From: an uncultured Alphaproteobacteria bacterium
GTDB lineage: Bacteria; Pseudomonadota; Alphaproteobacteria; Rs-D84; CACZYB01
NCBI GenBank assembly: GCA_944390685.1
Contig: CALXQL010000016.1
Location: forward strand, 17,408 to 81,407
Direction of reading: 5' to 3'
DNA length: 64,000 nucleotides
Shown here: piece after piece, positions 28,300-54,732 of the stretch
How the letters are laid out: the number at the start of each line of letters is the position of its first letter
Position numbering within the stretch: the first letter of the stretch is position 1
Translations under genes and position numbers: made by a program
The notes under the pieces: model-generated
What the model was told of the DNA's origin: nothing
The model's database searches: none
What the model saw: the letters and a program-made list of their open reading frames with translations, nothing else

Positions 28300-30111
28300 A
28301 TGAAAAATACAGGAAAATTCTTTATTTTTACACTTGCTTTTATTCAAGTTTGTATTTCTTTTCAAAGTGATATTTTTGCACAAAGTAAGAAAAGAGCAGT
28401 GAAATCAACAAAAAAAACTACATCTACAAGAAGTAAGTTATCCTCTCCTACTGCAGGTATTGTTGAAGATACTTCAAGGGCAAATTTGAGTACACGTGCT
28501 GGTCGTGTGCCTTCTGGAACTGGATCTTCAACTTCTTCTACTCCTGTTGATGAAGATTCTGCTGCACAACTTTTGGCTGATAATTTACAGGCTTGTATTC
28601 AATCTCAATGTGATGGAGATGTGCCTTTTGAAAAATGTTTTAAAAGTGGACAAGCAGAGTATTTGGTTCGTATAAACACTACTTGTAAAGCAATGTATGA
28701 TGGTGCTTCATCCGATGTGGTTAGGGTAAAGGCTATGAATCTTCTTAATACAAAAATTAAGGGATATTTTAATGAATCTTGTTCTTCTGCGGGTGGTAAA
28801 GTTTCCGGAAATGATTGTAAGGTGGATATTTGTTATTTCGCAAAAGGTGGTGAAGGTAAAAATGCAAGAGAAGTAAAAAGATGTAATTCATATAAAATTG
28901 GGCAATCTTTTACTTGTTCTGCAACTACATTTGGTCTTAATGATCAAGATTTGGAATATAATGAGGGGTTGTCTTCTACGGATATTGCTACTTTGGTTCA
29001 ATCCGGTATGGGGATTTTAAATGGTGCAATTACAACAACTATGAGTGCAATTGATGCCGCTCAAGCGTCAAAGGAATTAAGACTTAAAAGTAATGTCATA
29101 GGAAGAAACTGTGTTTGTGATTGGAGTTTTGATACTAATACTTTGACTTGCTCTTCATCAAATTGTAAAGAAACTTGGACAAAGTGTGGTACGGAAGGTA
29201 AAGCAAAAGAATGTAAAGGGGATAATAAAAAAGTTGATAGTTATGGGGTTTATTATCTTGTAGCAGATAATACAGAATATAAACCTTTAGATCCTAACAA
29301 CCTTTGTTCAAAAATTAAAGTGGGTAGTAATGAAACTAAAAGTGGTTCTTGTCAAATTGAAATTCCAGAATTGACAGAGGTAGCAAGACTTGAAAAAGAG
29401 GCGGAGCTTTACAAAAAATATACTGATTTTAACAAATTAAAGTTGAATGATAATATCAATAATATAGTTAATGTTGCAACTCAACAAGCTGCATTTGCAC
29501 AATTTGGTAATGATATTGGTCTTTCAACTCAAACAAATGAGATTGATTGTGGTGTGCCAGTTGGAGTTGTGATGGGAAATAGTTTGGGACAATTAGTTGT
29601 TGATTATAATAAGAATAATCCATCTTCTAAAGTTACCTCATCTTGTCAAGTTTCAAATAATGGTTTATATGTTTGTAAAAGAGATAGTTCAAATTGTATG
29701 AATGCTGTATTTAGAAATGGAACATATATTGCAACAAATTCAACAACACCTAATATTGGTAATGTAGGTAATGCTGTAAATACTTTGACTACTTCTTTGG
29801 CAAATGCTAATCTTTCCACTAATAATTATTCTTCTGCTGTGTCAGAATATAATGAGATGGTTAAGTCAGCAAATGAAAAGAAAAATGAATTAGAGGAATT
29901 GAAGAATCGTAAGGAAGATGGTCTTTCAAATGCAATTGCCTCTGGAACTGCGACTTTGGTTCAACAAGGTGCTGCAATGACTACAACATTGGTATCCGCA
30001 GCAAATAATAAAGGTGTTATGAGTGGTGCTTGTTATTTAGGGGATCCTCAAAATGGTGGTGTGTATTTTGCAAGTGATGGACAATCAAAGAAATTAACAT
30101 GGAAAATGTAA
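28300..30111 (+). CDS. hypothetical secreted cysteine-rich protein (signal peptide, S/T-rich linker, about 34 Cys)
   Basis: N-terminal signal peptide MKNTGKFFIFTLAFIQVCISFQSDIFAQ, numerous Cys residues and asparagine-rich segments. Confidence 0.55.
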   Translation: MKNTGKFFIFTLAFIQVCISFQSDIFAQSKKRAVKSTKKTTSTRSKLSSPTAGIVEDTSRANLSTRAGRVPSGTGSSTSSTPVDEDSAAQLLADNLQACIQSQCDGDVPFEKCFKSGQAEYLVRINTTCKAMYDGASSDVVRVKAMNLLNTKIKGYFNESCSSAGGKVSGNDCKVDICYFAKGGEGKNAREVKRCNSYKIGQSFTCSATTFGLNDQDLEYNEGLSSTDIATLVQSGMGILNGAITTTMSAIDAAQASKELRLKSNVIGRNCVCDWSFDTNTLTCSSSNCKETWTKCGTEGKAKECKGDNKKVDSYGVYYLVADNTEYKPLDPNNLCSKIKVGSNETKSGSCQIEIPELTEVARLEKEAELYKKYTDFNKLKLNDNINNIVNVATQQAAFAQFGNDIGLSTQTNEIDCGVPVGVVMGNSLGQLVVDYNKNNPSSKVTSSCQVSNNGLYVCKRDSSNCMNAVFRNGTYIATNSTTPNIGNVGNAVNTLTTSLANANLSTNNYSSAVSEYNEMVKSANEKKNELEELKNRKEDGLSNAIASGTATLVQQGAAMTTTLVSAANNKGVMSGACYLGDPQNGGVYFASDGQSKKLTWKM

Positions 30112-32798: not shown

Positions 32799-33233
32799 AT
32801 GAGTGAAAAACTTTTTATTTATACCGATGGCGCGTGTAGTGGCAATCCTGGTAAAGGGGGGTGGGGGGCTTTGTTAATTTATGGTGAACATAGAAAAGAA
32901 ATCTATGGTGGTGAATATGATACCACCAATAATCAAATGGAATTAAAAGCTGTTATTGAGGCTTTGAAATCCCTTAAAAAACCTACTTCAATTGATTTAT
33001 GGACGGATAGTCAATATGTAAAAAATGGTATTACAGAATGGATTACCAATTGGAAAAAAAATGGTTGGAAAAATGCTCAAAAAAAGCCTATTAAAAATAA
33101 AGAATTATGGTTGGAACTTGATAATCTTGTTTCTTTACATGATATTTCTTGGCATTGGGTCAAGGGGCATAATGGACATACGGAAAATGAACGTGTTGAT
33201 GAATTGGCTAGGTTAGGTATTAGTGAATTGTAA
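32799..33233 (+). CDS. rnhA: ribonuclease HI
   Basis: [20 protein letters not shown] and TNNQMEL motifs; 144 aa. Confidence 0.9.
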
Positions 33234-47092: not shown

Positions 47093-47150
47093 TTATAGAT
47101 AAGTTTTTTAAAATGTGATATACTTTATTTATATAAATAAGGAGTATGTT

Positions 47151-47702
47151 ATGAAATTTAAATTAGTTTATACTGGAGAATTAAAGATAAATCCAAAAAA
47201 AAGAAGTCAACATTTGCATGATATTCGTATGGCTTTGTCACCACAACTTGAAAGGTTAACAGAAATTTCTCCTTATAATACTATTAAAGAAAAAATGCAA
47301 AAAAGACCTTTGAAGGGGATAAGAGAAATTGATGGTGCTAAATTTTTCCCTATTATTAGACCGGAACTTAATTTAGTGGCTGAACTTGATATACAAATAC
47401 TTCATCCGGAATTATTGGAAACTCCTCGTGCAGATATTGATAATAGAATGAAGACCTTACTTGATGCGTTGAAAAGACCTCAAAGTGCACATGAATTGTG
47501 TGAAGGAATAAATAAAGATGAAGTTATTTATACATTGCTTGATGATGATCATTTGGTAACAAAAATGCTTATCAATACAAGTCATCTTTTATATAAAGAA
47601 TTGAATCCTAGTCCAAATAGGGATTATGAATTGTTGGTTATTATCACTGTGAATATTAAGGCGTCTAAGGGGACTACGGATAATTTGGCAATAATCGTTT
47701 AA
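47151..47702 (+). CDS. hypothetical protein (183 aa)
   Basis: ORF with an RBS (AAGGAGTATGTTATG). The start was taken at the internal Met of the track ORF 47115..47702. No domain recognised. Confidence 0.45.
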   Translation: MKFKLVYTGELKINPKKRSQHLHDIRMALSPQLERLTEISPYNTIKEKMQKRPLKGIREIDGAKFFPIIRPELNLVAELDIQILHPELLETPRADIDNRMKTLLDALKRPQSAHELCEGINKDEVIYTLLDDDHLVTKMLINTSHLLYKELNPSPNRDYELLVIITVNIKASKGTTDNLAIIV

Positions 47703-47768: not shown

Positions 47769-47843
47769 GCTACTGTGGCTCAGTGGTAGAGCACACCCTT
47801 GGTAAGGGTGGGGTCGTGAGTCCGATTCTCACCAGTAGCACCA
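47769..47843 (+). tRNA. tRNA-Thr (anticodon GGT)
   Basis: Acceptor GCTACTG/CAGTAGC, anticodon stem CACCC/GGGTG, loop TTGGTAA and a CCA end. Confidence 0.85.
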
Positions 47844-48691: not shown

Positions 48692-49154
48692 TTAATGAGA
48701 GTTTTCACTTACTGAATGTAATAAGTAGTTAACATCTATGTTTTCCCTATCTATGAGATTTTGAAGATGTTGTTCATCAAGGATATTATTTTTATAAATT
48801 TGAACTGATGTTAAACCTGTATTACATACAAGTGCAGATTTTATGCCGTAATTATTAGCACCTTTTATATCATTTTTTATAGAATCACCAATCATTAAAA
48901 TCCTATCTTTTGGATAAGGTAAATCACTTAGTGCATTTTCAAAAGTTATTTTTAATGGTTTACCAAATTCAACTATTTCTAAACCTGCTTTGTAAGGGGG
49001 TTCAGTAAATAATTCTTTATATATTTTTTTGTCAATATTTATTACTTCTTTTATTATTGCATTTTGATTTTTTGAATATATACTTTTAGAGATTAGGAAT
49101 TGAGAGAGAAAATGAAATTTTTTAAATACTTTTATATATTTTTCTTTATTTGTT
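48692..49154 (-). pseudogene. C-terminal fragment of a HAD-IA hydrolase with no N-terminal catalytic half. The track gives only 48692..48895; the frame stays open upstream to 49154 and overlaps the start of the outer-membrane-protein gene.
   Basis: By hand translation, ...EFGKPLKITFENALSDLPYPKDRILMIGDSIKNDIKGANNYGI matches the HAD motif III region. There is no DxD motif and no ATG upstream. Confidence 0.4.
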
Positions 49155-50491
49155 TTTCAAGTAATCTTGTTTATGCAAGTGATAGTAAAAATCAAGGAGA
49201 TAATTCCGTCGTTGTTGCAAAAGATGGGGTTATATCCTTAACACCTGTGCAGATTATAAATCTTTCTAAAAAATTTATTGAAGATAAGAATTTTCATGAT
49301 GCTAAAATGCTTTTATTAAAAAGTTCATTTAATGTTTTGGAATTGGAAATTGAAAGACTTCATTTATTGGCTCAAATCGCTATTTTAGAAGATAATATTG
49401 ATACGGCAATTGATATTTATAGATTTATTCTTGATTATCAGCCAAATATTTCTTCCATTAGATTTAAACTGGCTCAACTTTATATGCTTAAAAAATCTTG
49501 GTATAAAGCGGATTATCATTTTCGTTTGGCTGCAACTGATAAAGGTTTACCAGATGAAGTGAAAATGGAAATTGCAAAGGCTTTGTTTATTACAAGACAA
49601 AATAAAAATTGGAATATATGGTTTAATATTGGTGCGGCTCCGGATAATAACATAAATAATGCTCAATCAGGTGAGCAGTGTATTGCAACAATTTTTGGGG
49701 TTTTATGTAATCAACTTCCTTATCCTGAAAAAGCTATTGGCTTTAATACTTCATTTGGTGGAAATTATGAATTCATTTTAAATGATAATTGGAGAATTAG
49801 AAATGAGTTAGTTGTGTCTAATTCCATGTATGATAAAAATGAATATGATGATTTATATATTGGATATAATATAGGTCCAAAATATGTTTTTAGAAAAGGT
49901 GAAGTTGCTTCTTATTTAACAACATATAGAAGATGGTTAGATCATTCTCCTTATAGTTATAGTGTTGGTGTAAGAGTTGATGCAAATTATGATTTAACAA
50001 ATAGATTGAGTGTTGGAGCAGGGCTTCGTTTTTCACCAACTTTTTATGATGATTATGGAGATTATCTTGATGGAAATGTCAGTGGTATTGATAGTAGATT
50101 AGTTTATTCTTTTGATGCTTCTAAATATATTATTTTTAGAAATTATTATGAAATGGAAAAAACTGAAGATCCAATTTATTCTAATAATAGATTCTTTTTA
50201 TCTTTGGGCTTTGGTATTGAACTTCCTTATGGATTCTTTGTTTATTTGGAACCTTCTGTTTTATTTACAGATTATAAGGAAGAAAGACCATTCATCAAAG
50301 ATTTATCTTTTGAAAATATTAAGGAAGAGGATATTACAAGAAAGTATATGATTTCTTTTTCAAATAGAAAAATTAAATTTTGGGGATTTACTCCGACATT
50401 TTCTTATACCTATACAAATAAAAGTTCAAATGTTTGGCAAAGAGAATATAAGAAATCCGCTTTTGAATTTACTATTAATCAAAGATTTTAG
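49112..50491 (+). CDS. outer-membrane protein with an N-terminal TPR-like helical domain and a C-terminal beta-barrel ending in Phe; the architecture is Slam/DUF560-like (surface lipoprotein assembly modulator)
   Basis: Signal peptide (FFICFSSNLVYA), helical TPR-like repeats (residues ~60-150), then an aromatic/Gly-rich region of alternating beta-strand pattern, and a terminal ...EFTINQRF. The start was taken at the second Met. Confidence 0.5.
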   Translation: MKFFKYFYIFFFICFSSNLVYASDSKNQGDNSVVVAKDGVISLTPVQIINLSKKFIEDKNFHDAKMLLLKSSFNVLELEIERLHLLAQIAILEDNIDTAIDIYRFILDYQPNISSIRFKLAQLYMLKKSWYKADYHFRLAATDKGLPDEVKMEIAKALFITRQNKNWNIWFNIGAAPDNNINNAQSGEQCIATIFGVLCNQLPYPEKAIGFNTSFGGNYEFILNDNWRIRNELVVSNSMYDKNEYDDLYIGYNIGPKYVFRKGEVASYLTTYRRWLDHSPYSYSVGVRVDANYDLTNRLSVGAGLRFSPTFYDDYGDYLDGNVSGIDSRLVYSFDASKYIIFRNYYEMEKTEDPIYSNNRFFLSLGFGIELPYGFFVYLEPSVLFTDYKEERPFIKDLSFENIKEEDITRKYMISFSNRKIKFWGFTPTFSYTYTNKSSNVWQREYKKSAFEFTINQRF

Positions 50492-50504
50492 TTAGTTTTG
50501 GATA

Positions 50505-50702
50505 TAAAAAATCACTTAAAAAGTGGTCATCTTTAAAAGTGTTAGATATTTTTTCTATCAAAGTATAAATATATAATATCACGATTCGTGGATTTTTGCA
50601 AGTAAGAAAATATTCTTTTTATTATTGAATGAAGGTTAAAAATATGATATAATTCCTTTTGTAATGATATTGAAATAACCAAAACAAAAGGAGGAAAAAT
50701 AA
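50505..50702 (+). promoter_or_regulatory. conserved lipoprotein-family upstream element, copy C
   Basis: Near-identical to copies A, B and F. Confidence 0.7.
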
Positions 50703-51678
50703 ATGAGAAAAACAATATCACAGATAAGTCTAATAACAATGTTATCATTATTAAGTGCATGTGGTGGAGGAAATCTAGCTGAAAACTTGCCAAATCTACC
50801 GGGGGGGAACAGAAATAGAACCTAAACCAGAACCTAAACCAGAACCGGAAGAATTAACATTTGATAAAATATTCCCTAATAAAGATGCACTTGCCGGTAT
50901 GGTGGGAGGAGACGGAGAGCCAGCTTTTTCTATAAAAGATGCAGAAGGTGACCAACCTGAAAAATTAGTGTTTAAAAATCTACCAGAGTGGGAATTCCCC
51001 ATAACAAGTTTTGAAGATAAAAGTGATTTTTATTATGCATATATAGAATCTGATACAAAATCTGATGATGAAAATTATTATAAAACTTATTATAATTTAG
51101 TATTACCTAAAGATGTTAATATTTCTTATGGAAGTTTCTTTCTTGTAGGTTCTGGACAATTTGATTCTGAAACTAATAATGGTGTGAATGGATATAGATT
51201 TTCTCCAAGTTTTCAATATGATCCATCAAAAAAAATTGATGTTGCAACTTTTGAAAATGATATGACTTTTAAGGGTAATTCCATTTTAGGAATAACATCA
51301 ATTTATGGAAATTCAAAAGAAGATTATGCAATATTAAATGGTGATGCAAATTTAACATTGAGTAAAGATGGTTCAATTAATGCTAAAATAGAATTTGATG
51401 ATTTTTATACAATTAACTTTAATAATAATAGTGATGATAATTTTATCACATTAACTGATAAAAATAAGATTTCAGATAATATAAAGAAAGTTATTGGAGA
51501 GATAGAATTTGATGGAAAAAATGAAGTAAAAGTAGATAAATTACGTTATGATTCTTATGTCATATTAGGAAGTGATAATAAAATTCCAGAAGAAATTTTA
51601 GGGACCTATGGTTTTTCATGGGGTAATGAAGAAAAAGGTTATTACGCCACTGGATCCTATGGTGTAAAAAAACAATAA
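50703..51678 (+). CDS. surface-lipoprotein family member 3, phase-variable. It is out of frame at a G7 tract: the signal-peptide ORF from 50703 stops at 50822 and the mature domain resumes in the +1 frame (track ORF 50899..51678).
   Basis: The lipobox MRKTISQISLITMLSLLSACGGG is followed by G7 at 50801-50807. Removing one G fuses it to the ORF 50899..51678, which carries the family motifs (FDDFYTINF, KISDNIKKVI, PEEILG, YGVKKQ). Confidence 0.65.
50801..50807 (+). repeat. homopolymeric G7 tract (phase-variation switch) in the lipoprotein gene
   Basis: Counted directly from the sequence. Confidence 0.85.
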
Positions 51679-51705
51679 ATGTTTATTTTTTATCATTTTT
51701 TAAAT

Positions 51706-51728
51706 CCCGCCGTTGTGCGGGAATTTTT
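51706..51728 (+). terminator. rho-independent terminator (CCCGC-CGTTGT-GCGGG-AATTTTT), identical to the one at 16988
   Basis: Identical hairpin sequence. Confidence 0.65.
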
Positions 51729-51732
51729 ATAT

Positions 51733-51779
51733 AAAAAATCACTTAAAAAGTGGTCATCTTTAAAAGTGTTGTTTTATTT
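51733..51779 (+). promoter_or_regulatory. orphan partial copy D of the lipoprotein upstream element (operator palindrome only), abutting tRNA-Ser
   Basis: AAAAAATCACTTAAAAAGTGGTCATCTTTAAAAGTG is identical to the 5' end of the element; the rest is absent. Confidence 0.6.
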
Positions 51780-51784
51780 TTTAC

Positions 51785-51874
51785 TGGCGGATGGGGAGGG
51801 ATTCGAACCCCCGGTGGAGTTGCCCCCACAACGGTTTTCAAGACCGCCGCATTCGACCACTCTGCCACCCATCC
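51785..51874 (-). tRNA. tRNA-Ser (anticodon TGA), long variable arm
   Basis: The reverse complement reads GGATGGG...GCGGT-CTTGAAA-ACCGT..., with a long extra arm, GGTTCGAATCC T-arm and CCA. Confidence 0.85.
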
Positions 51875-53562: not shown

Positions 53563-53660
53563 ATTGCAAAACTTTGCGAATCATGATATTATATATTTAT
53601 ACTTTGATAGAAAAAATATCTAACACTTTTAAAGATGACCACTTTTTAAGTGATTTTTTA
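53563..53660 (-). promoter_or_regulatory. orphan partial copy E of the lipoprotein upstream element (reverse orientation), lying 3' of lipoprotein gene 4 with no gene of its own
   Basis: Its reverse complement matches the copy-B variant (...CACGATTCGCAAAGTTTTGCAATAGGG). Confidence 0.6.
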
Positions 53661-53666
53661 TTAGAT

Positions 53667-54557
53667 TTAATTTTGAAAATTATTTATTTTTTTTACACCA
53701 TAAATTCCATCAATAAAAGTTTTTTTATCATTATTTTCTATATTAAATGTAAAATTACCAACAACTTCTTCAGGATTTTTGTTTTCACCTAAAATATTGA
53801 ATTGATGATTTTTTAATTTTGTTTTATAATTATCGTGAACTAATGCTAAATTATCATAAAAATCTTTTGGAATTTTATTGTTATTAAATAATGTGATTTC
53901 ATTTTCTTTTATATTTACAGAATAAAAATTATCAAAATTCATTGTTAAATTGTATTGTTCGTTTGGATATAAAATTAAATTAGCATTTCCTGTAATAGTT
54001 TCATCATGATTATTAATATTAACATTATTTTTACTAATAGAGAAAAAATTAAGAAGTACTTTACCATTAAAATTGATTGTTTCATCTATTTTATTTATAA
54101 TAGTATCATTATTAATAGTTAGTAATGGGTAAAAAATTACTTGATTATATCCATTTGAAGTATATCCCAGTAAAGCTATATTTCCATAAGATAAATCTAA
54201 ATCCTTTATAAAACTAATACTTGCTTCACCATATTCAACCGAGTTAACAGCTTTATAATAATTATCTTTATTTTCAAAACTAGATAATGGAAATGAATAT
54301 AAATCTGGATTTATGGAAACTGATAAAGTTTCTTCCCCATCAACTTCATTTAAATTCATTGTAAAATTATCTAATGTAGAAAAAGAGGAAATTTCCTCTT
54401 TATTATAAAAAATATCTTGGAATTCCAATTCATCTTTGTTTTGTGATATATCATTATTGCTTATTTCAAATTTTGATAAATTAGGTAGGTTTGATCCACC
54501 ATTTCCACTACAAGATGCAAGTAATAAGTATAATACTAAATATAAATTATTTTTCAT
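53667..54557 (-). CDS. surface-lipoprotein family member 4 (lipobox LLASC)
   Basis: Signal peptide plus Cys and the family motifs (YNLTMNFDNFYSVN, NPEEVVG, IYGVKK). Confidence 0.7.
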   Translation of the reverse strand: MKNNLYLVLYLLLASCSGNGGSNLPNLSKFEISNNDISQNKDELEFQDIFYNKEEISSFSTLDNFTMNLNEVDGEETLSVSINPDLYSFPLSSFENKDNYYKAVNSVEYGEASISFIKDLDLSYGNIALLGYTSNGYNQVIFYPLLTINNDTIINKIDETINFNGKVLLNFFSISKNNVNINNHDETITGNANLILYPNEQYNLTMNFDNFYSVNIKENEITLFNNNKIPKDFYDNLALVHDNYKTKLKNHQFNILGENKNPEEVVGNFTFNIENNDKKTFIDGIYGVKKINNFQN

Positions 54558-54732
54558 AAATAAATTCCATAAATTATCATTATTATATCATATTTTTAAC
54601 CTTCATTCAATAATAAAAAGAATATTTTCTTACTTGCAAAAATCCACGAATCGTGATATTATATATTTATACTTTGATAGAATTTATATCTAACACTTTT
54701 AAAGATGACCACTTTTTAAGTGATTTTTTATT
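54558..54732 (-). promoter_or_regulatory. conserved lipoprotein-family upstream element, copy F (reverse orientation), in the divergent intergenic region shared with the RND efflux operon
   Basis: Its reverse complement is near-identical to copy C through ...GAAGGTTAAAAATATGATATAAT. Confidence 0.7.

Follow-up and report, generated by a model that had tools for sequence, protein, structure and literature searches.

What is known of Slam-dependent (type 11 secretion, T11SS) cargo and of poly-G contingency loci comes mainly from pathogens in culture, among them Neisseria, Haemophilus, Moraxella, Pasteurella and Campylobacter. The closest described counterpart of the locus considered here is hpuA of Neisseria meningitidis and N. 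gonorrhoeae, which encodes a phase-variable, Slam2-dependent haemoglobin-haptoglobin lipoprotein. Its switch is an intragenic poly-G run, in some cases interrupted and then described by an "effective tract length" (PMC3786947), and the gene adjoins a Slam gene (PMC5449769). Slam-dependent surface lipoproteins (SLPs) have been defined by Hooda et al. by a lipobox, a handle domain followed by an eight-stranded barrel, and adjacency to Slam (PMC5449769). A second point of comparison is provided by the poly-G/C contingency loci of Campylobacter jejuni, in which intragenic G runs of 7 - 11 are found in surface-structure genes and poly-G lengths cluster at G9/G10, because tracts of 8-9 G tend to gain bases and tracts of 10-11 G to lose them (PMC3401435). 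A third is provided by Slam/T11SS cargo without a switch, such as hemophilin (HphA), fHbp, PmSLP-1/fIbp and NilC.

The locus described here lies in a stretch of 64,000 nucleotides (hereafter the window) from an uncultured gut alphaproteobacterium, and it seems rather probable that one of its genes, gene B (50703-51678, forward strand), is an hpuA-like poly-G phase-variable (contingency) gene that was OFF in the populations sampled. As in hpuA, the length of a run within the gene would set the ON or OFF state, and a Slam gene is adjacent. Gene B differs from hpuA in having no sequence similarity to it detectable by Pfam, NCBIfam or PDB sequence searches, in the lack of a TonB-dependent partner nearby and in its host, a gut alphaproteobacterium rather than a Neisseria; moreover hpuA tracts range from G4 to G19 and about 65% of isolates are ON, whereas the tracts here are nearly fixed at G10 and all are OFF. 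The C. jejuni loci likewise belong to a low-GC, host-associated bacterium, but they represent other gene families, and among strains as well as inside single populations they occur in several lengths and in either state, a spread not seen here. Compared with the switch-less Slam/T11SS cargo, the present family has no Pfam model, and its linker homopolymer is specific to this species as far as it has been sampled.

Gene B is a single gene, surrounded by one promoter, one Shine-Dalgarno sequence and one terminator. The promoter (50625-50653), located by a promoter scan, has a -35 element TTGAAT (50625-50630), a 17-nt spacer and an extended -10 element TGATATAAT ending at 50653; the Shine-Dalgarno sequence GGAGG (50690-50694) was read directly from the DNA, 8 nt 5' of ATG 50703, and an intrinsic-terminator-like hairpin with a T run (51705-51722, forward strand) marks the end of the transcription unit. 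As the gene stands in the genome, the frame that opens at ATG 50703 (frame 0) runs only to 50825 and comprises a lipoprotein signal peptide (MRKTISQISLITMLSLLSAC, cleaved before GGGNLAENLPNLPGG) with the lipobox LLSA/C (LSAC), in which the Cys is codon 20 (50760-50762), a Gly/Pro linker, a homopolymer of exactly seven G at 50801-50807, as the earlier note had reported, and five out-of-frame codons (N-R-N-R-T) before a TAA. There are 40 codons in all. The earlier note had thus recognised the premature stop in frame 0 but had misplaced it at 50822, which is the last sense base, the TAA occupying 50823-50825. Its placing of the family-domain ORF 50899-51678 (259 aa) in the +1 frame was correct, and this frame is in fact uninterrupted from 50803, inside the G7 run, to a TAA at 51676-51678, so that the +1 coding region (50803-51678) encompasses a Pro/Glu/Lys linker, ELTFDKIFPNKDAL, a handle domain and a C-terminal eight-stranded barrel. 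When the tract was edited in silico, removal of one G fused the two halves as had been predicted, G6 giving a single ORF of 324 aa and G9 one of 325 aa, while G8 led to an early stop different from that of G7. A change in repeat number is therefore sufficient, in silico, to toggle an otherwise intact gene, G6 and G9 restoring it and G7 and G8 truncating it. In the OFF state the predicted product is a 40-aa prolipopeptide.

Directly 3' of the G run there is a second repeat, consisting of 6-nt units that encode Pro-Glu or Pro-Lys (50808-50850 in gene B, 17323-17360 in its paralog A and 7880-7950 in contig L002 of another strain). The number of units differs by copy and by strain, the distance from the tract to EELTFDKI being 28, 34, 40, 52 or 70 nt; as the changes are always in-frame, it is the length of the surface tether that is polymorphic.

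Immediately 5' of gene B and on the same strand lies a gene (49100-50491) for a surface lipoprotein assembly modulator (Slam), the outer-membrane protein of the T11SS, which matches the full Pfam model PF04575 (SlipAM) with an E value of 2.8e-30 and, weakly, TPR_Slam; its probable start is ATG 49112, giving 459 aa. This arrangement is kept in two other strains, in which the Slam protein is 99% identical. The remaining neighbours of gene B are a tRNA-Ser (51785-51874, reverse strand), an epimerase, UDG and RND pumps. No TonB-receptor domain was detected in any ORF of at least 600 aa in the window, nor beside gene B, and the lipoprotein is thus taken to be a stand-alone SLP, not a co-receptor of the TbpB/HpuA type. 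Elsewhere in the window, a 67-aa ORF (48692-48895, reverse strand) is probably what is left of a gene, since its match to a HAD-like hydrolase (PF13242, E 3.6e-07) is confined to the C-terminal part; it adjoins a complete HAD hydrolase of 233 aa and is kept in the gene calls of other strains. A 603-aa ORF (28300-30111, forward strand) has no Pfam family; and a 195-aa ORF (47115-47702, forward strand) just 5' of a tRNA-Thr (47769-47843) has only a very weak Pfam match, to RusA.

Lipoprotein B has a C-terminal eight-stranded beta-barrel after a beta-rich handle, a TbpB-like fold. The comparison figures for it against known proteins were 11.5, 11.4 and 11.1 for hemophilin, 11.3 for fHbp, 10.3 for HpuA, 10.2 for the NHBA C-domain, 10.1 for the TbpB C-lobe and 10.0 each for LbpB and PmSLP-1. 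The likeness is one of fold only: the protein does not belong by sequence to the TbpB_B_D or GNA1870-type families, searches of Pfam and NCBIfam with the fused proteins and with paralogs C and D gave no family at E values up to 1, and a PDB sequence profile search gave no match at E values up to 10. The Sec/SPII signal peptide and lipobox Cys (MRKTISQISLITMLSLLSA/C) read from the N-terminal sequence are present in the joined product only. From the lipobox, the fold and the position of the Slam gene we infer that gene B encodes a surface lipoprotein dependent on Slam, that is, on type 11 secretion.

Gene B is one of four paralogs in the window with pairwise identities of 27 - 38%. Paralog A (17215-18214, forward strand) begins at ATG 17215 with the same 5' cassette and has a G10 tract at 17313-17322, which places its family-domain ORF (17408-18214) +1 out of frame; it would be in-frame at G9 or G12 (332 aa). 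The tracts of A and B are preceded by the same 15 bases and their 3' flanks differ by one base (AACGG and AACAG), and the earlier claim of a tract at the homologous site of a paralog, also off by one, is thereby upheld. Paralog C (16015-16980, forward strand) and paralog D (53667-54557, reverse strand) are intact lipoproteins of 321 and 296 aa, neither of which has a tract. An upstream element of about 150 nt that includes the promoter is common to all four (50506-50653 on the forward strand in the case of gene B), as shown by an alignment of the four upstream regions, the promoter scan and six perfect copies of a core sequence within the window. The similarity between A and B is far more extensive, since 17011-17401 and 50502-50892, which cover the promoter, 5' UTR, signal peptide, tract, PE/PK linker and ELTFDKIFPNKDAL, are about 90% identical in nucleotide sequence, but beyond ELTFDKIFPNKDAL protein identity falls to roughly 30%. 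It would seem that a 5' cassette for expression and switching, joined to divergent bodies, has evolved in concert or undergone gene conversion.

The 38-nt core, AAAAAATCACTTAAAAAGTGGTCATCTTTAAAAGTGTT, occurs six times with zero mismatches (15843-15880, 17015-17052, 50506-50543, 51733-51770 and, on the reverse strand, 53622-53659 and 54692-54729). It is found 5' of all four paralogs and also 3' of B and D, so that direct repeats bracket these two cassettes; the copy downstream of gene B lies between the terminator and the tRNA-Ser. Another strain precisely lacks cassette D and has one more, X, the breakpoints lying in the 38-nt repeats. The repeats suggest that cassettes may be gained and lost by recombination, or alternatively that the core could be strongly constrained because a regulator binds there. 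Exact-pattern scans of JGI metagenomes with a 36-mer signal-peptide pattern and a 34-mer from the repeat core gave no match.

Several lines of evidence support the earlier proposal that the two halves of gene B are one gene. Two conserved blocks compared between the tract and ...KDAL contain five variable sites; read in the fusion frame, each is a third codon position at which the change is synonymous, and because these sites lie 5' of ATG 50899 translation must enter in the fusion frame from the signal-peptide ORF. The fusion frame 3' of the tract is uninterrupted for 261 - 296 codons in all eight complete copies and for 101 of 101 codons on the truncated contig L006. Between strains dS is 0.11 - 0.19 for B and 0.38 - 0.50 for A, with no stop and no second frameshift. 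Separate translation of the 259-aa ORF was considered and rejected, as inspection of the sequence revealed no Shine-Dalgarno-like motif 5' of ATG 50899, the product would have no signal peptide, and the same-frame constraint extends to sequence 5' of its ATG. Between-strain dN is approximately 0 - 0.01 in a conserved core, with other segments at a dN/dS of about 1 and an overall value of 0.5 - 0.9; the pattern is patchy, the ratio being close to 1 for the handle and for portions of the barrel loops and close to 0 for the core, and the region forms a local diversification hotspot. Slam (49100-50491) is 99% identical between the window and contigs L002 and L003, whereas the adjoining lipoprotein B (50803-51678) is only 89% and 80% identical, and a conserved Slam together with a diverging lipoprotein and the gain and loss of cassettes is the behaviour of exposed, selected surface antigens.

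An exhaustive HMMER search of 1.84 billion representative proteins gave six strong matches, apparently of the same family, and about 20 weak ones, the ten best of which have no convincing Pfam domain. Together, the contigs with relatives of either the lipoprotein family or Slam number a few dozen and come nearly all from metagenome assemblies. The nearest Slam relatives are 65 - 66% identical and the next 39 - 48%, most of them in metagenome-assembled genomes (MAGs) labelled Alphaproteobacteria or Candidatus Enterousia, and several from gut samples of sheep, goat, yak and reindeer; Enterousia is placed in the order Rs-D84, whose genomes are smaller than about 1 Mb (PMC12306168). It is on this single protein, Slam, that the window has been placed taxonomically. 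Slam homologs 41 - 44% identical were also found on three contigs (L030, L031 and L032) in MAGs labelled Elusimicrobia or Avelusimicrobium, the other matches being alphaproteobacterial, which reflects either the horizontal passage of Slam loci among lineages of the gut or errors of binning or labelling. The Slam-adjacent lipoproteins of the two closest genera are single intact ORFs that start MKNNLKISLIALSTLLTACGGG(N/G)... and end FGAKRK or FGLKRD, and in the one stretch of DNA that was read their glycine linker uses mixed codons. No G run of seven or more was present in a lipoprotein gene at the Slam loci of 22 relatives. The relatives being single ORFs with no G run, the fused architecture is ancestral and the homopolymer, within the range sampled, has arisen in this species. 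The loci in these genera (L034, 1404-5779; L015, 53-1192) have one to three tandem intact paralogs of 366 - 536 aa directly 5' of Slam, with near-identical signal peptides, which suggests that Slam-linked lipoprotein families are widespread among the gut MAGs of this group.

The tracts of A and B are the only runs of G or C longer than six in the window (28.7% GC). Dinucleotide-preserving shuffles contained a mean of 1.35 G7 words per window, so a lone G7 is not rare for this composition; the non-random feature is the position of the tract, which coincides with the frame break and occupies the homologous codon in both paralogs. A run G6-T-G6 at 32856-32868 was considered as a third, locked tract and rejected, since it consists of the in-frame GGG codons of the conserved GKGGWG motif in an ordinary RNase H gene (32799-33233); it does indicate that GGG is not avoided in this low-GC genome. 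A census yielded nine well-supported tracts at three loci in three or four closely related strains, a small sample in which the tracts are not independent: G10 in A and G7 in B in the window, G10 in X, A and B of strain 2 (ERZ16268197), G10 in an A-like locus and B of strain 3 (ERZ16268202), and G10 in an A-like locus and X of sample ERZ17292904. All nine are OFF and in the same register (n = 1 mod 3), and eight of the nine are exactly G10.

The orthologous tract of gene B is therefore G7 in the window strain and G10 in two other strains, and a comparison of strains bears out the expected variation as regards length, but not as regards phase, because all nine tracts are OFF. Nor can active slippage be deduced, as it had been in the earlier note, from the presence of 7 and 10 G in two paralogs, which differ by three and hence leave the phase unchanged. 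The sole in-frame allele encountered was on contig L006 (ERZ24773515), where the tract of A is G-C-G7 (9 nt), reminiscent of the interrupted runs of hpuA, and the called gene spans the junction. This contig has a coverage of 2.9x, five of its six differences fall within 26 nt of the tract, and elsewhere the sample from which it comes matches the window at 100% identity (contig L010). The allele may be genuine, either as a minority variant or as a product of gene conversion, or it may be noise. A full-length ON protein was not found among 5.8 billion clustered database proteins, and database records of the 5' ORF consist of only six distinct peptides of 40 or 41 aa. When the fused protein, the N-terminal cassette and a profile of the family were used in word-indexed protein searches, only members from the same species and no ON form were returned, an exact-pattern scan of GTDB genomes with the 20-mer preceding the tract gave no match, and the 268-aa ORF of paralog A was not on record in an exact-product look-up.

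The interpretation that we favour is that the poly-G run, situated in the linker just after the lipidated Cys, would determine which frame is read. A run of 6 or 9 G would join the signal peptide to the handle and barrel, and the adjoining Slam could export the lipoprotein and flip it to the surface; with 7 or 10 G a stop would be reached five codons past the run and the only product would be a prolipopeptide of 40 or 41 residues. The length of the run would be altered by slipped-strand mispairing during DNA replication, and paralog A would constitute a second such contingency locus. That switching is reversible and frequent, and why OFF predominates, are matters that we infer. Two aspects of the census are awkward for a phase-variable gene: G7 is at the low end of mutable tract lengths, which counts against a switch, and the uniform G10/OFF register is a small but real puzzle. 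When C. jejuni step rates were used as a proxy, and the tracts were assumed, doubtfully, to be independent, it was calculated that a neutral tract would spend 49% of the time at G9, which is ON here, and that the probability of finding nine of nine OFF would be about 0.0025. On the same proxy and assumption G10 would be the expected mode of tracts that are OFF (54%), and the probability of at least eight of nine being G10 would be about 0.04. The low probability of finding all tracts OFF implies that OFF is strongly selected in the gut, or that the 5' cassettes evolve in concert, or that this is not a free-running switch. It is plausible that ON is counter-selected in the gut populations sampled, or that the near-identical 5' cassettes homogenise one another.

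The same uniformity raises the question of programmed recoding, in which the out-of-frame G10 or G7 would be retained and only some of the messages or ribosomes would yield full-length lipoprotein. RNA polymerase might slip on a C10 template and produce transcripts with G9 or G12, or the ribosome might make a +1 slip, with tRNA-Gly moving on GGG-GGA. Rescue of homopolymer frameshifts by transcriptional slippage is known from Blochmannia and Buchnera, and the Blochmannia genome paper reportedly treats conserved homopolymer frameshifts along with such slippage. These cases likewise involve an out-of-frame homopolymer whose register is constant from lineage to lineage and which is flanked by two intact ORFs, but their tracts are poly(A/T) in the housekeeping genes of intracellular symbionts, whereas the tract here is poly(G) in a variable family of surface proteins. 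Recoding would account for a register shared by nine of nine tracts and a length shared by eight of nine despite downstream dS values of 0.1 - 0.5, for the difference of exactly one codon between G7 and G10, for coding constraint on both sides of the break and for the absence of an ON allele from protein databases. It nevertheless strikes us as unlikely. Bacterial transcriptional slippage is best documented on A/T runs; a G7 tract would slip poorly and leave copy B of this strain nearly silent; the run is followed by AAC rather than by the rare or stop codon of a classic +1 site; and GGG codons are in normal housekeeping use, for example in the RNase H motif at 32856-32868. A downstream RNA structure as frameshift stimulator was looked for and rejected, the RNA 3' of the tract being less folded than shuffled sequences (z = +1.0 to +1.35). 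We accordingly think it doubtful that G10, with G7 as a variant shorter by one codon, is a conserved recoding site rather than a stochastic DNA switch, with the surface lipoproteins expressed at a low level; were it so, it would be a poly-G analogue of the poly-A rescue of endosymbionts, serving the surface antigens of a genome-reduced gut symbiont.

It might also be supposed that gene B is a plain pseudogene, inactivated by a homopolymer frameshift and now decaying in a reduced genome, as no strain has it ON, a tract of only seven G mutates poorly, the overall dN/dS of 0.5 - 0.9 is high and paralog copy number varies. The retention of a frame of 261 - 296 codons at 29% GC across dS of up to 0.5 with no second lesion is difficult to reconcile with decay, as are the purely synonymous changes across the junction region and core segments with dN of about 0; nothing is damaged in the promoter, Shine-Dalgarno sequence, signal peptide or lipobox, which are conserved to about 90% from one paralog to another, and the break is always at the same homopolymer and nowhere else. 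Decay is for these reasons a very unlikely explanation. A sequencing or assembly error splitting a tract that is truly in-frame is extremely improbable, for although long G runs are error-prone in short-read metagenome assemblies and, to judge from the discordant L006, two assemblies of one strain need not agree on a tract, the same G7 is present in the window, ENA ERZ28614080 and ENA ERZ24773515 (100% identity over 7 kb), G10 recurs in contigs of three other assemblies (with scaffold-style and k87-style naming), random error would not yield the same length each time, and the earlier view that the split is no artefact is borne out by its recurrence in independent assemblies.

The locus combines a Slam gene, a small hypervariable family of handle-plus-barrel lipoproteins, a common promoter and 5' cassette, and a homopolymer right after the lipidated Cys. 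The design familiar from Slam cargo and contingency loci is thus encountered in an uncultured, low-GC and probably genome-reduced alphaproteobacterium of the gut. This suggests that such poorly understood gut organisms vary their surface under pressure from the host, from phage or from partner cells, and the locus provides concrete surface molecules with which this may be studied.
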